DNA of 64,000 nucleotides from a bacterium (GCA_965225985.1 OZ245330.1:3098019-3162018), one strand, 5' to 3'; counted from the first letter of the stretch, positions 4,951 through 62,572 are shown. Made by a program: numbers and translations. The notes: a model not told the origin generated them from the sequence alone.

Positions 4951-5888
4951 AGGGGCCCGTCCTTGCCCTCGCCGGGGGGGTCGGAGGCGCCAAGCTCGCG
5001 GTGGGCCTCGCGGCCGCGCTTCCGCCGGGGGCGCTCACCGTCGTCGTCAATACCGCGGACGATCTGTCCCTTCACGGCCTCCACATCAGCCCCGACCTCG
5101 ACACCGTGATGTACAACCTGGCCGGGGTGGCCGACCCGGAACAGGGATGGGGGATCGCCGGGGATACCACCACCGCCCTCGAATTGCTCGGCCGGCTCGG
5201 CGGGCCCACCTGGTTCCGGCTGGGGGATCAGGACCTCGCCACCCACGTCCGGCGCACCCAGCGCCTCGCCGAAGGCGCCCGCCTCACCGAGGTGACGGCC
5301 GAGCTTTGCGCGGCGCTCGGCATCCGCTCCCGCGTCCTTCCGATGACGGACAGCCCCGTGGCGACGCGCGTGAACACGCCCGAGGGCGAATTGGAGTTCC
5401 AGGACTATTTTGTCGCCCGAAGCACCCGGCCCCGGGTGACGGGCGTGCGCTTCCAAGGCGCGGAACGATCCCGGATGACGCCGGAGGCGGAAGAAGCCCT
5501 CAAGGAGGCGCGCGCTATCGTGTTCTGCCCTTCCAATCCGATCGTGAGCGTGGGACCCATCCTCGCCGTCCCCGGATTTCTCGAAAAATTCATGCAGAAC
5601 GACGCTCCCCGGATCGCGGTGAGTCCCATCGTGGGGGGAGCCGCTCTTCGCGGGCCCGCGGCCGAAATGCTCGAGGGCATGGGGCACGAGGCGACCGCGC
5701 TCGGGGTGGCGAGGATTTACCAAGAATTCCTGGACGGGTTCGTCCTCGACGAAGAAGACGCCGAACTCCTGCCGGAAATCGAAAAGCTGGGCCTGGCGGC
5801 ACGGGCGCTTCCCACCATCATGACCGATTTGGAGTCAAAAAAACGCCTCGCCGGGGAAATTCTCCGCTTCGCCGGCGGCCTTCGGTAA
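4947..5888 (+). CDS. cofD: 2-phospho-L-lactate transferase CofD
   Basis: ATG at 4947 overlaps the upstream stop (ATGA). CofD/UPF0052 blocks (LALAGGVGGAKL, VVNTADD, FCPSNPIVSVGPIL). Confidence 0.88.
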   Translation: MKGPVLALAGGVGGAKLAVGLAAALPPGALTVVVNTADDLSLHGLHISPDLDTVMYNLAGVADPEQGWGIAGDTTTALELLGRLGGPTWFRLGDQDLATHVRRTQRLAEGARLTEVTAELCAALGIRSRVLPMTDSPVATRVNTPEGELEFQDYFVARSTRPRVTGVRFQGAERSRMTPEAEEALKEARAIVFCPSNPIVSVGPILAVPGFLEKFMQNDAPRIAVSPIVGGAALRGPAAEMLEGMGHEATALGVARIYQEFLDGFVLDEEDAELLPEIEKLGLAARALPTIMTDLESKKRLAGEILRFAGGLR

Positions 5889-5963
5889 GACCCTTTCCGG
5901 CAGCCGTGATAAGATGGGCCTGCACACGTAACCATTCCATTAAATGGTCGCGGGGCATTTCGG

Positions 5964-6617
5964 ATGGCCACATCGGGAGAATGCATCGCTCTGGTGCCGG
6001 AGCGGGGGTTCCGCTCCGGAAAGTCCCGCCTCTCGCCCGTCCTCACGCCCGAGGAGCGGGACGAGCTCGGGCGCTGGATGCTGGGCCGCGTGCTCATCGC
6101 CCTCCGGGAATCAGATTCGGTCGGGCGGGTCGCCGTCCTCAGCGAGGACGATGAGGTGCTCGCCTTCGCGGGCGAGAACGGCGCCGCGGGCATTCGCTGC
6201 GAGGGCGCCGAGATGAACGCCGACCTGGAGAAAGGCCGCGCCTGGTCCCTTTCGAAAGGCGCCAGCGCCCTCCTCGTCATTCCGGGCGACCTCCCTGCCC
6301 TCCGGGCAATCGAAGTGGATTCGCTGATTGACCTCGGGAAAAAAACAAACGGGGAGAAAGGTTGCGTCGTCCTCACGCCCGCATTGGATGGGGGGACAAA
6401 CGGAATCTATCTGCGCCCCGCCGGCGCGCTCTCCTTCTCCTTCGGGCCCGGAAGTTTCAAGCGCCACTCCGCTGCGGCAAAGGCGGCGGGCCTGGAGGTG
6501 TCGCGTTTTGAAAGCCTGGGCCTGTGTCTGGACGTGGACCGCCCCTCGGACATTGTCGCCTTCCTGCGTTCCGGGGTACCGGCCCCCGAGTGGCTGGCGG
6601 AAATCCCGCTGCCATGA
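5964..6617 (+). CDS. cofC: 2-phospho-L-lactate/PEP guanylyltransferase CofC
   Basis: 217 aa. CofC-like N-terminus (IALVPERGFRSGKSRL) and GTP:adenosylcobinamide-phosphate guanylyltransferase-like fold features. Lies between cofD and cofE. Confidence 0.8.
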   Translation: MATSGECIALVPERGFRSGKSRLSPVLTPEERDELGRWMLGRVLIALRESDSVGRVAVLSEDDEVLAFAGENGAAGIRCEGAEMNADLEKGRAWSLSKGASALLVIPGDLPALRAIEVDSLIDLGKKTNGEKGCVVLTPALDGGTNGIYLRPAGALSFSFGPGSFKRHSAAAKAAGLEVSRFESLGLCLDVDRPSDIVAFLRSGVPAPEWLAEIPLP

Positions 6618-7375
6618 ATCCGGTTCAAATTCTTCCCATCAACGACCTCCCGGAAATCCGGGAAGGGGACGACCTTCCCCGCCTCCTCCTGGACGCGATG
6701 CGGGAAAGCGGCATCCGCTTCAAAGAAGGGGATATCCTCGTTCTGGCCCAAAAGATCGTGAGCAAGGCCGAGGGCCGCTTCGTCCGCCTGTCCGGGGTAT
6801 CGCCTTCGCCGGACGCCATTCGGATCGCCGAGCGGGACGGCCGCGACGCGCGCATGGTGGAGGTGGTCCTGCGCGAGTCGAACGAGGTGGTGGCGGCCTC
6901 GGAGCGCGCCCTCATCGCCGAGCACCGATCGGGCGCCGTTTGCGCCCACGCGGGGGTGGACCGATCCAACCTGACGGGAGACGCGGATCTCGTGCTGCTT
7001 CTCCCGGCTGACTCCGACGCCTCGGCAAGAAAGATCCGCGAAGCCCTCAACCGCCTTGCGGGGGCCGGCCCCGCCGTCATCATCGCCGATACCCAGGGGC
7101 GCGCCTTCCGAAGCGGGGTGGTCGGGGTGGCGATCGGCTGCGCGGGGGTGGAGCCGGTTGCGGACCTCCGCGGCACAAAGGATCGGGCCGGGCGGCCGCT
7201 CGAGATCACCCAGGTGGCCCAGGCGGACGAGCTGGCCGCCGCCGGGAGCCTGGCCATGGGGCAGGCGGCCGAAGGCGTGCCGGCCGTCATCGTCCGCGGG
7301 TTCGGCTACCGGCCCGGGGAAGAGCCGGCCACCCGCCTCTTCCGCAAAAAGGCGGAAGACCTCTTCCGCCGATAA
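6614..7375 (+). CDS. cofE: Coenzyme F420-0:L-glutamate ligase CofE
   Basis: ATG at 6614 overlaps the cofC stop (ATGA). CofE blocks (GDILVLAQKIVSKAEGR, HAGVDRSN, IADTQGRAFR). There is no fused nitroreductase domain. Confidence 0.88.
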   Translation: MNPVQILPINDLPEIREGDDLPRLLLDAMRESGIRFKEGDILVLAQKIVSKAEGRFVRLSGVSPSPDAIRIAERDGRDARMVEVVLRESNEVVAASERALIAEHRSGAVCAHAGVDRSNLTGDADLVLLLPADSDASARKIREALNRLAGAGPAVIIADTQGRAFRSGVVGVAIGCAGVEPVADLRGTKDRAGRPLEITQVAQADELAAAGSLAMGQAAEGVPAVIVRGFGYRPGEEPATRLFRKKAEDLFRR

Positions 7376-7440
7376 TCTCCGGGAGGGCTCCGCCTTCGGG
7401 CAGCCGGGGCTTTCCCCAAAATTCATGAGGAAAATGAAAC

Positions 7441-7761
7441 ATGCCGCTTTTTCGCTGGAGTGAAATCGAGGAGAAACAACTCAACGCGCTGGTCCGCGGC
7501 CGGATCGTGAAAACCGATAATGTGATGGCCTGCCGGATCACCGCGCCGCGGGGGGAGATATCCACCCACGAGCATGACTTCGACCAGATCACGCATATCA
7601 TCAGCGGAAAATTGAATTTCCGCCTCGGAGACGGAAACCAACGGATCGTTCAGGCGGGAGACGTCATGGTTTTGCCGGCGGGAACTCCGCACGGGGGCGA
7701 GGTGCTCGAGGAGGCGGAATACATCGATATCTTCTCTCCCCCCAATCCGGACTTCGCCTGA
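7441..7761 (+). CDS. Cupin-domain protein
   Basis: 106 aa. Cupin motifs around 'THEHDFDQITHIISGKL' and 'GDVMVLPAGTPHG'. Confidence 0.65.
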   Translation: MPLFRWSEIEEKQLNALVRGRIVKTDNVMACRITAPRGEISTHEHDFDQITHIISGKLNFRLGDGNQRIVQAGDVMVLPAGTPHGGEVLEEAEYIDIFSPPNPDFA

Positions 7762-8491
7762 GGCGAAGAAGCACCCGGGAAGCCATTCCCCCCGCCGGAA
7801 AAAGAGATCTGTTGAAAATTCACGTTCACCGGTGAATGACCCATTTACCGCGTCCCGTGGGATGAACCATACGGTTTGCAGGGTTCCGGCTTTTTTTGCA
7901 TAATTTACGCGGAGCGGTGAAAAAGGGACGCGGGATCGACCTGTACGCAGCAAGCCCGAACAGACGGCAAAAAGGATTTCTCCATGGCGGAAAGCGAACA
8001 TTCTTCCCATGTTGGGGAGGAGGAGCGAAACGAGGAATCGGGCGCATATGGGCCCTCCGGGGACGGCGACGCGGCCACTTCACCGGCGGCCGGGCTGATC
8101 ACGCTCGGATCGAAGACCGCCTTGCTCTCGCGCCCGATGCCCTGCCCCTACCTCGGCTCAAGCGAGGGCAGGGAGCACCCCTTCGACACGCCCTCCCGGA
8201 GAAACGGCTGCTACGCCCAAAAGGGGAAGAAAAAGGGGGGGCCGGCGCCCGGGGGCCGCCTCGTACAGCCGCATTCCGCGTGAAAAGCAAGAAAGCCATT
8301 GCTTGAGCCATTTCGCCCAATGCGAGCTGTACCAAAAAAAGCTTCAAGAGGAACCCGAAGATGCCGCGGGCGGGGCTGGGTCCCGCTCCAACTCGGATTC
8401 ACCGGCTTCCGATGCGAAGAGCAAACAGAGAGATAAGACGCATCGGTCCGGAACAAGAAAGAGAAAGTAATCGCGGAAAAGATCCTTTCCC

Positions 8492-33774: not shown

Positions 33775-33911
33775 AAGTGACCGCCCCACTCCACGTGTGC
33801 CCAAGTATTGTCCGGGCACCGGTTTTACAATCTAAATATAAGCTTCCGGCTATTCATTTGTCAAATATCACGTAAATTCAACGATTTGCATGGGTTTTGG
33901 CTGTTTATAGG

Positions 33912-60585: not shown

Positions 60586-61395
60586 ATGGACACAGCAGCC
60601 AGATGGCCCAAATTTCTAAGCGATGCCTTCACAACCACCCGCTACTCGGGGGTATGGCTCCTGGTCCGGGTCTGGCTGGGATTTCTGTGGCTGGACGCGG
60701 GCTGGCACAAGCTCATGGGAAAGGGATGGCTCTGGTTCGACGGCGGCGCCTCGCTGGAGGGCTTCTGGACGCGGGCGGTCGCCATCCCGGCGAAGGGCCG
60801 GCCCGCCATCCGCTACGACTGGTACCGCGACTTCCTCGCCTACATGCTCGATAACGGCTGGCACGAATGGTTCGGCACCCTGATCGTCTTCGCCGAGATC
60901 CTGGTCGGGCTGGCCTTGATCCTCGGCGCGCTGACCGGGCTCGCGGCCTTCGGCGGCTGGTTCATGAACGTGAACTTCATGCTCGCGGGAACGGCGGCCA
61001 CGAACCAGGTGATGGCCACCATGGCCGCGATGCTGATGATCTCCTACGCGGTGGCCGGGCACGCCGGCCTCGACCGCTGGCTGCTTCCCCGGCTGGGAAC
61101 CCCCTGGGGGGCGGCGCAGAAGATCCCCCTCATCGATCGGCTGGAGGGGTTCGCGGTCCAGCTCTTCTACATCGTCCTGCCGCTCGGCTTCGGCGTCCTG
61201 GCGGGGCAAGAACTTATCGCCTCCGACTTCGTGAACCACTTCATCCCGCTCAAGGCCCTGGGCGGCATCACGGGCGGGGCGCTCGGCCTCGCCGTCGGGG
61301 GATACGTGGTCTACCGGATTCACCGGGCTCCGGCCGGGGAGAAAGCGTCTCCGGCGGCTCCCGGCCCGAGGGAGAGACTCCCCCGGGCCGCCTGA
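60586..61395 (+). CDS. DoxX/DoxD-family membrane protein
   Basis: Four to five TM helices with the DoxX pattern (RVWLGFLWLDAGWHKL..., GTLIVFAEILVGLALILG). Confidence 0.68.
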   Translation: MDTAARWPKFLSDAFTTTRYSGVWLLVRVWLGFLWLDAGWHKLMGKGWLWFDGGASLEGFWTRAVAIPAKGRPAIRYDWYRDFLAYMLDNGWHEWFGTLIVFAEILVGLALILGALTGLAAFGGWFMNVNFMLAGTAATNQVMATMAAMLMISYAVAGHAGLDRWLLPRLGTPWGAAQKIPLIDRLEGFAVQLFYIVLPLGFGVLAGQELIASDFVNHFIPLKALGGITGGALGLAVGGYVVYRIHRAPAGEKASPAAPGPRERLPRAA

Positions 61396-61564
61396 GCGGC
61401 GCGGCGGTCGGACGGGCCGCTCCGGCCGGAGCCACCGGCCGGGGCGGTTTTTTCAGGCCGGAGGCAAGCGCCAGAAGAGCAGTCCGGGGGGAGGTGCCTC
61501 CCCCATCACCCCCTCCCCGGCGGGAAATCGCCAATAGTCCTTACGTTTCGGGGATTAATTTCGG

Positions 61565-61593
61565 TTGAAAGTTCCGACGGCAGGTACTATAAT
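61565..61593 (+). promoter_or_regulatory. Consensus sigma70-type promoter: TTGAAA, 17-nt spacer, TATAAT
   Basis: -35 at 61565-61570, -10 at 61588-61593, spacer exactly 17 nt. Read directly from the sequence. Confidence 0.6.
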
Positions 61594-61599
61594 TTATAT

Positions 61600-61913
61600 T
61601 ATAGGATCGAGATAAACAGGGGGAAACAGAACTGGGGACGCTGAGAAAAGATCGGCCGGAGCGATAGGGGCTTCCGCTCCGAGGGAGACTGCTCTCACAA
61701 CGGGAGGAAAGCTCGATGAAGCGAGACAGGAACCCGGTTCTGCAGGTGCAGTTTTCGGTCTCCCCGGCCCCACCGTCGGCCGGGCGGGGAGACTATAGGA
61801 AGGCGGACGACCCAAAAATGGGCGGCTTACCGTCCCGAATGGCAGCGGGGAAAATCCCCCGGCCAGAAAATTAGCATAGGGAGCGGGGTGCAACGCCCCG
61901 CTCCCTATTTTTT
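61600..61913 (+). ncRNA. Candidate structured RNA of about 310 nt (an sRNA, or a cis-regulatory leader of the downstream GAF gene); class unknown
   Basis: Lies between the consensus promoter and a strong intrinsic terminator. There is no ORF of 60 aa or more. Several stable hairpins are present, for example GGAGCG-ATAGGGGCTTC-CGCTCC, CTGCAGGTGCAG and TCTCCCCGGCC...GGCCGGGCGGGGAGA. A 52-codon ORF (61716..61874) with a GGAGGA SD is an alternative reading. Confidence 0.45.
61878..61913 (+). terminator. Rho-independent terminator
   Basis: AGGGAGCGGGG-TGCAAC-GCCCCGCTCCCT followed by ATTTTTT. Confidence 0.7.
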
Positions 61914-61976
61914 CCGCCCTCATAAAATGGAAGAAGCTTCCCGATTCTGCTCCCACCGTCTGGAAGCCACCTCGAA

Positions 61977-62572
61977 ATGGGGAGAGGGGCCATGGACCAG
62001 CAAGAAAAAAAGATTCTTATCTCGGCACCATCCGGAAGATCACCGAGGAGCTCACCTCCACCCTCGATATCGAAGAGGTGCTTCAGCACATCGTCCGCCT
62101 GACGGCGGAGGCCGTGGGCGTCAAGGGGTGCAGCCTCCGGCTGCTGAACGAGAAGACGAGACAGTTCGATCTCTCCGCCGCCTGGGGCCTGAGCCCGGTC
62201 TACCTCTCGAAGGGGCCCATCGACGCGGACCACAGCATGTCCGCCTGCATGAAGGGCGGCCTCGTGCACATCCTCGACGCGAAGAGCGACCTTCGCGTGC
62301 AGTACCCCGAGGACGCGCAGACGGAGGGGATCGTCTCGATGCTCTCGGTCCCGATGCTATCGGTGGGCCGTGTCCTGGGGGTGCTCCGCCTCTACACGTC
62401 GGAGACGCGGGACTTCGAGCGCGACGAGCTCGAATTCGTCCAGACGCTGGCCGACCTGGGCACCCTCGCGCTCGAGCACGCGCGCCTCTACACCGGCCTC
62501 AAGGAGGACCACGCCGCCCTCGTCGAGGACTTCCACGCCTGGTTCGAGGCGAGCACCTACCACCCCGCCTGA
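61977..62572 (+). CDS. GAF-domain protein; frameshift in an A7 run (62005-62011)
   Basis: MGRGAMDQQEKK, then a 1-nt shift into the GAF frame ...LGTIRKITEELTSTLDIEEVLQHIVRLTAEAVGVKGCSLRLL.... Confidence 0.58.

Follow-up and report, generated by a model that had tools for sequence, protein, structure and literature searches.

The region 61565–61913 of the analyzed DNA (the window, a stretch of 64,000 nucleotides from an uncultured, phylogenetically isolated bacterium, GCA_965225985.1) contains about 310 nt bracketed by a sigma-70-type promoter and an intrinsic terminator, both of which are stronger than expected by chance. The explanation that we tentatively prefer is that this element, which is confined to one narrow clade, is a young, lineage-specific small gene with an mRNA-like transcript that is probably translated. 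An earlier sequence-only reading of the window proposed a novel structured RNA. The hairpins in this region exceed the expectation for GC-rich sequence only slightly and give no indication of which strand is transcribed; the transcript is most likely not a conserved structured RNA, and it fits no family described to date. None of the explanations considered here amounts to a new kind of system. If expressed, the element would represent one more lineage-specific small gene (a peptide mRNA or an sRNA) in an uncultured, isolated bacterium, which would help annotation and might be a case of recent gene birth, with no new RNA class involved. More generally, a textbook promoter, a terminator and hairpins in a GC-rich genome are insufficient for a structured-RNA call, and the comparative data that could be recovered in this case speak against one.

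The element is located between a gene of the DoxD/DoxX family and a stand-alone GAF-domain gene (Table 1). The −35 hexamer TTGAAA (61565–61570) and the −10 hexamer TATAAT (61588–61593), with the 17-nt spacer, are found exactly as previously described, and the predicted transcription start is at about 61600. The promoter lies in an AT-rich patch of about 42% GC, compared to the window average of 65%, as had also been noticed. The site had been considered the best sigma-70 match in the window; it indeed matches 11 of the 12 consensus positions but is not unique, being tied with a site at 33864 on the minus strand. On both strands of the window, these two are the only sites with 11 matches, and two sites have 10. 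In the 6-kb region, three promoter-like sites are found, with 0.5 expected from shuffled sequences. The terminator stem (61876–61908) consists of 15 pairs, 10 of which are G–C, with an arm duplex energy of −30.6 kcal/mol, and T6 occupies positions 61908–61913; this is the same hairpin that had been conservatively described as an 11-bp stem with a 6-nt loop and a U7 tail. Between the two signals, the conserved core (GGAGCGATWGGGGCTTCCGCTCCGAGGGAGAC) includes a 7-bp hairpin (CGGAGCG...CGCUCCG, 61657–61681) and, after it, a Shine-Dalgarno (SD) sequence, GGGAGG (61702–61707), that resembles the ribosome-binding sites of the DoxD and GAF genes and is separated by 8 nt from the ATG at 61716. In the predicted structural ensemble, the first three bases of the SD are mostly paired, and the remaining bases are open. 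The order of these features, namely promoter, 5′ UTR, SD, ATG, open reading frame (ORF), stop codon and terminator, is the standard arrangement of a small gene. No ORF of 60 amino acids or longer is present between the promoter and the terminator on the plus strand, in agreement with the sequence-only reading. A 120-aa ORF on the minus strand (61594–61956) overlaps the unit and was rejected as a gene on account of a GC3 of 0.51 and the lack of a Pfam hit. No additional paralogous copies of the element were detected within the window.

The upstream DoxD gene has its own terminator, a hairpin followed by T6 at 61416–61453, so that the promoter-to-terminator stretch appears to be a transcriptionally separate unit. 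Downstream, the GAF gene starts at the ATG at 61992 (as called in the sibling contigs), 78 nt after the end of the T-run at 61913 and on the same strand; the distance of 64 nt given previously fits an in-frame ATG at 61977. Thus, the terminator is immediately 5′ of, and co-oriented with, the GAF gene, as in attenuator leaders. The promoter scan found no promoter-like site in 61914–61991, and inspection by eye revealed no convincing match to a sigma-54 or ECF-type promoter in this 78-nt spacer. Within the GAF gene, an A7 run (62005–62011) causes a frameshift in the window and in strain L006; this run is A8 in five other lineage A strains (see below) and AAAAAAGA in lineage B, both of which yield an intact 193-aa protein. 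In the frame of the window the run reads GA[A AAA AAG], resembling the dnaX −1 slippery heptamer; the simpler reading is a homopolymer miscall or a true frameshift allele.

The scans of the large DNA collections were anchored on GAF, and the element was found in only three closely related lineages, at least 90% identical. Lineage A consists of seven near-identical strains (>99% identity), recovered by exact look-ups of the DoxD protein in long-read metagenome contigs of up to 3.4 Mb. Lineage B (L168, L172, L173 and L175) is about 92% identical to the window, and lineage C (L169, L170 and L171) is represented by three short, independently derived contigs whose coverage of the element is confined to its 3′ part, from about 61770. 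An exhaustive phmmer search of 1.84 billion representative sequences with the 52-aa ORF product retrieves a single 54-aa protein (E = 1.4e-4) from the sister lineage B, and none outside the clade. The contig that encodes this protein, L168, retains the gene order of the window, i.e., the small ORF followed by the genes for the GAF-domain protein, an MFS protein and an amidohydrolase; the remaining contigs of lineages B and C were reached through members of the GAF protein cluster. Beyond the clade, GAF orthologues with 72% identity or less are found in Nitrospinaceae, Tectomicrobia and unclassified MAGs. Among about 160 loci that carry GAF relatives, drawn from genome and metagenome collections, blastn and nhmmer detect no similarity to the element and synteny with DoxD or MFS genes is lacking throughout; the closest orthologues (72–55% identity) have unrelated upstream regions of 30–230 nt. 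No relatives of DoxD above 60% identity were found outside the species. Taken together, these findings indicate that the lineage is isolated and that the element is not a leader conserved with GAF. Outside the clade, the nearest GAF orthologues, L008 and L009, each have an AT-rich promoter-like sequence of their own, followed in L008 (2742–2971) by roughly 190 nt of G+C-rich leader containing a strong hairpin without a U-tract, and in L009 (2258–2368) by a leader of about 70 nt; both are unlike the element. An origin from a MITE or another mobile element was also considered and rejected, given that there are no flanking inverted or direct repeats, no match of the core to viral contigs and no PHROG hit.

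Table 1. Coordinates of the 61565–61913 unit and its neighbors in the window, and differences between lineages A and B (A–B)
Feature	Position	Strand	A–B differences	Remarks
DoxD/DoxX-family gene	60586–61395			Upstream neighbor
Sigma-70-type promoter, TTGAAA-17 nt-TATAAT	61565–61593	+	3/29, all in spacer; both hexamers identical	11/12 consensus positions
Purine-rich, indel-tolerant 5′ segment of the transcript	61600–61653	+	Mostly two indels, ~15 and ~10 nt (61594–61653)	Least conserved part of the element
Internal core	61654–61715	+	3/62; P = 0.28, no significant drop below the neutral rate	Best conserved internal part
52-codon ORF (MKRDRNPVLQVQFSVSPAPPSAGRGDYRKADDPKMGGLPSRMAAGKIPRPEN)	61716–61874	+	14/159	SD and ATG present in A and B
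Intrinsic terminator, 15-bp G+C-rich stem, 3-nt loop, T6	61876–61913	+	0/39; P = 0.04 under the neutral rate	Arm duplex −30.6 kcal/mol
Terminator-to-GAF spacer	61914–61991	+	4/79; about neutral	Without recognizable promoter
Stand-alone GAF-domain gene, 193 aa when intact	61992–62572	+		Pfam GAF_2, GAF, GAF_3

The DoxD gene is decaying in lineage B. In L172 and L173 the gene has become a pseudogene: 74 nt are deleted, frameshifts are present, and the three codon positions diverge equally. In L168, a deletion of about 900 bp at a TCGGGG microhomology removes DoxD and ends 10 nt upstream of the −35 box (the comparison involves 60586–61395 of the window, 1200–2030 of L173 and 1300–1373 of L168). 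The possibility that the element travels with DoxD was rejected, because lineage B loses DoxD yet retains the element.

The DoxD pseudogene together with three spacers provides the neutral yardstick, namely 98 differences in 1265 positions between lineages A and B (7.7%). Four-fold degenerate sites, which diverge by 4.6%, were not used for this purpose because they are constrained by a GC3 of about 0.9. With the indel zone excluded, the element differs between A and B at 24 of 368 positions (6.5%), which is indistinguishable from the neutral rate (p = 0.50). The sole segment that stands out, and weakly so, is the terminator, and even there single uncompensated changes at the base of the stem are found in some strains and in lineage C. 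The hexamers, the SD, the ATG and the core of the terminator are identical between A and B, and two substitutions fall in the 8-nt region between the SD and the ATG. By comparison, the GAF gene is clearly subject to purifying selection, with a divergence of 2.1% against the neutral 7.7% (p = 4e-7). Within lineage A, the transcript contains 3 SNPs in 314 positions versus 16 in 426 in the two flanking spacers, a 4-fold lower density (p = 0.018), so that some weak constraint is possible; given that the divergence between A and B is neutral-like, unlike that of the GAF gene, any constraint on the element must be weak. Both large indels map to 61600–61653: lineage A has an insertion of about 15 nt that resembles a tandem duplication (AAACAG-GGGG / AAACAG-AACT-GGGG), and lineage B has one of about 10 nt that forms a CCCGG-CAAGGA-CCGGG hairpin. 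Single-base indels were not counted as evidence because low-coverage long-read contigs carry homopolymer errors.

Two strains of lineage A deserve separate mention. In L001, the −10 box is TGTAAT instead of TATAAT (61589), an alteration of the most conserved −10 base that is either a natural promoter-down variant or a sequencing error. In L007, an insertion of 2.9 kb (5277–8169 of the contig) between the ORF stop codon and the terminator (window 61867–61874) separates the promoter and the ORF from the terminator and the GAF gene. This insertion carries an IS1595-type DDE transposase and an N6/N4 methyltransferase-Mrr fusion, and is flanked by an 8-bp target duplication, AAAATTAG.

The failure of the sequence-only reading to match RNase P, tmRNA, SRP, 6S or T-box features is borne out by a search of the whole window with the Rfam 15 covariance models, which yields no hits at the gathering score; when the threshold is relaxed to E ≤ 10 over the region, the best match is BjrC80, with 24.7 bits compared to a threshold of 80, and is driven by the terminator hairpin. 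ARAGORN identifies neither a tRNA nor a tmRNA. The several stable hairpins that had been reported are only partly above chance. The whole transcript folds with z = −4.07 relative to shuffled controls, a signal that is driven by the terminator, and the opposite strand reaches −4.46; for the body without the terminator (61600–61875) the score is −2.18, with 7 of 200 shuffles folding equally well, and −2.84 on the opposite strand.

Comparative analysis likewise speaks against the structured RNA that the sequence-only reading had suggested. The sequences upstream of GAF orthologues, which had been put forward as a source of covariation, contain nothing similar in the roughly 160 loci, and RNAalifold run on eight sequences from the three lineages returns a covariation term of +3.53 kcal/mol, i.e., a penalty; the test has low power, with only about 7% divergence available and lineage C lacking the 5′ half. 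In this alignment, the only pair changed on both sides lies in the indel zone, where the alignment is unreliable, and lineage B or C breaks about 12 of the predicted pairs. The core hairpin never varies and so is uninformative on structure. The terminator and a small hairpin at 61846–61861 keep their stems while the loops vary across the three lineages. The tolerance of 10–15-nt indels argues against a tightly structured 5′ third. The weak fold that is not strand-specific, the broken pairs and the neutral-like divergence point in the same direction.

The putative ORF product would be a basic peptide of 52 aa (pI 10.5) that is predicted to be disordered; AlphaFold predicts no fold (pLDDT 68, pTM 0.16). 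Apart from the sister-lineage copy, no homologue was detected in a word-indexed search of 5.8 billion proteins, and there is no family hit in Pfam, NCBIfam or PHROG. The sequence contains an APP motif at residues 18–20 and neither a single-amino-acid run nor a run of regulatory codons in its 52 residues. In lineage A, the stop codon precedes the terminator by 2 nt. In lineage B, the stop is changed from TAG to TGG and the frame continues through the terminator to 69 codons. In lineage C, TTG occupies the position of the lineage A stop, and K46>TAA, a change shared by the three independently derived contigs, truncates the ORF to 45 codons, 25 nt upstream of the terminator stem. In L005, a 1-nt deletion frameshifts the ORF. 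The frameshift in L168 was discounted as evidence against coding because it results from an extra C in a C-run of a contig with 2x coverage and is absent from L172 and L173.

Signs of coding are faint. The pN/pS ratio of frame 0 is 0.33, the lowest of the six frames (0.48–4.7 for the others, with only 14 substitutions), and the A–B substitutions are distributed over codon positions 1, 2 and 3 as 5, 2 and 7. With the lineages pooled, frame 0 has 10 synonymous and 13 nonsynonymous changes, the most synonymous of the frames, an excess with p = 0.04 under a 25% null and p = 0.20 under a 33% null. The GC3 of the ORF is 0.72 compared to 0.85–0.95 in real genes; its codon log-likelihood of −0.07 per codon corresponds to the 7th percentile of genuine in-frame windows, and 35% of random 40–70-aa ORFs in the window score as high or higher on codon usage. 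Gene callers skipped the ORF in lineage A, L172 and L173. Conservation of the 52-codon ORF, proposed earlier as a check, is mixed: the SD and the ATG are kept, with a faint lean towards synonymous change, but the ends at 45, 52 and 69 codons differ. The sequence-only reading held that an unconserved region with a conserved ORF would indicate a small protein gene instead; the outcome is halfway to that, as the region is absent outside the narrow clade and the ORF preserves its start signals and a slight synonymous excess, but not its end.

Under the preferred explanation of a young small gene, sigma-70 RNA polymerase would start at about 61600 and stop at the hairpin and T6 of 61876–61913, producing an mRNA-like transcript of about 310 nt. 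This transcript would begin with a 5′ UTR of about 115 nt, loosely constrained and tolerant of indels, followed by GGGAGG, 8 nt and the ATG, and then by the ORF of 45–69 codons that ends at or near the terminator. The ORF would probably yield a short, basic, disordered peptide of which only the first 45 or so residues are roughly constant. A minor read-through fraction of the polymerases probably contributes to the expression of the GAF gene, given that the terminator is 78 nt upstream of its start and no other promoter is visible. A more specific version, which we regard as rather improbable, is that of a proto-gene caught early, i.e., a full expression unit born in an intergenic spacer, evolving near-neutrally, with the ORF end turning over and a faint coding bias. 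A second, likewise improbable possibility is that ribosomes translating the ORF modulate the terminator and in this way tune GAF.

An alternative that we consider somewhat unlikely is that the element encodes a non-coding, trans-acting sRNA of about 310 nt that base-pairs with its targets, with the ORF being incidental; the A/U-rich AGAAAAUUAGCAUA in front of the terminator hairpin and the U-tail would then constitute a 3′ module for binding a chaperone. The element's own strong promoter and strong terminator are compatible with this scenario, as are the atypical codon usage and the unconserved end of the ORF, its omission by gene callers in most contigs, the retention of the stems of the terminator and of the 61846–61861 hairpin in three lineages with varying loops, and the lowered SNP density within lineage A. 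Nevertheless, such an RNA would match no Rfam family, shows no covariation and about 12 broken pairs, has a body z-score of only −2.2 that is no better than that of the opposite strand, diverges between A and B at a neutral-like rate, and has no identified conserved single-stranded seed, whereas the SD and the ATG are well positioned and conserved, and the synonymous bias is best in frame 0. The signals might also be a functionless by-product, newly arisen or a leftover in a spacer that is decaying alongside a DoxD gene undergoing loss, and drifting neutrally, in which case any transcript would be noise. An A–B divergence indistinguishable from that of pseudogene and spacer DNA (p = 0.5), the indels in the 5′ third, the −10 mutation in L001, the IS insertion in L007, the frameshift in L005, the premature stop in lineage C and the lack of the element beyond the clade all fit this possibility. 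We nonetheless regard it as distinctly improbable, because chance is unlikely to bring together a promoter with 11 of 12 matches, a terminator of 15 bp and an SD-ATG-ORF, correctly ordered and oriented, and all these signals are kept across about 7% neutral change, with an unchanged terminator (0/39, P = 0.04) and a SNP density in lineage A that is 4-fold below that of the flanking spacers (p = 0.018).

The remaining alternative, which appears unlikely, is that the element serves GAF as an extended 5′ leader, with P61565 as the GAF promoter and the terminator acting as an attenuator in the manner of pyrBI: ribosomes that reach the hairpin (lineage A) or pass through it (lineage B) would melt the stem and cause read-through, so that GAF expression would follow the translation status of the ORF. 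The separate termination of DoxD means that GAF must have a promoter; the 598-nt spacer offers P61565 as the sole recognizable candidate, and the 78 nt between the T-run and the co-oriented GAF gene contain no promoter-like site. Furthermore, the element stayed with GAF in the L168 deletion that stops 10 nt short of the −35 box, and the stop codon of the ORF is found right next to the stem in A and past it in B. These observations have to be weighed against the great strength of the terminator, for which there is no antiterminator: the best competing duplexes reach −17.5 and −19.3 kcal/mol, compared to −30.6 kcal/mol for the terminator itself, and blocking the 3′ arm costs 27 kcal/mol and creates no new structure, leaving the 5′ arm essentially unpaired. 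In addition, the stop codon of lineage C, 25 nt before the stem, is too distant for a terminating ribosome to cover it, there are no regulatory-codon runs, GAF orthologues with 72% identity or less have short, unrelated leaders, and an insertion of 2.9 kb that parts the ORF from the terminator is tolerated in L007. Of the two options offered by the sequence-only reading, an independent sRNA or a riboswitch/attenuator leader, the independence of a promoter-to-terminator unit of about 310 nt is retained, but the riboswitch/attenuator option lacks both an antiterminator and a corresponding leader in GAF orthologues.

Among the characterized systems, the closest in layout are dual-function sRNAs and small-ORF mRNAs, such as SgrS-SgrT (227 nt, 43 codons), RNAIII with delta-haemolysin, and SR1-SR1P. 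Like these, the element is predicted to be a unit of a few hundred nucleotides with its own promoter and intrinsic terminator and a small ORF with a ribosome-binding site; unlike these, it has no sequence or family relationship to them, the end of the peptide is not conserved, and it occurs in one narrow clade. In the E. coli pyrBI leader, a 44-codon leader ORF runs through the attenuator hairpin, and pyrE is another translation-coupled attenuator. The resemblance to pyrBI consists in an ORF of about 50 codons that ends at the base of the terminator (A) or passes through it (B), with the next gene on the same strand. The differences are that no U-rich pause sites or regulatory codons were identified, that the lineage C stop is 25 nt short of the stem, that the downstream gene encodes a GAF-domain protein without a known link to nucleotide pools, and that conservation does not extend past the clade. 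In riboswitch and T-box systems, too, a gene is preceded by a long leader and an intrinsic terminator, but for the element there is no Rfam match, antiterminator or covarying aptamer-like core, and nothing comparable is present upstream of GAF orthologues. The RNA polymerase-binding RNAs include 6S RNA and Ms1 of actinobacteria, which is about 300 nt long. The element is in the size class of Ms1 and has a strong promoter like both; unlike them, it has no Rfam hit even at E ≤ 10 and is not conserved, and since its 5′ and 3′ ends are not paired with each other, the predicted fold differs from a rod with a central bubble.

Two other regions of the window came to attention in the course of this analysis. 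At 33864–33755, on the minus strand, there is a second orphan mini-unit in which TTGACA-18-TATATT (11/12) precedes a 12-bp hairpin with T6 by about 45 nt; the predicted transcript is about 75 nt long and has no Rfam match at E ≤ 1. This mini-unit sits just downstream of the apparent 3′ end of an IS1595-like transposase (EFDFRWNHRG). At about 57959, the window and L006 are missing approximately 270 nt that are found in L001–L005, and gene calling yields a single 312-aa gene in L006 versus several shorter ones elsewhere.
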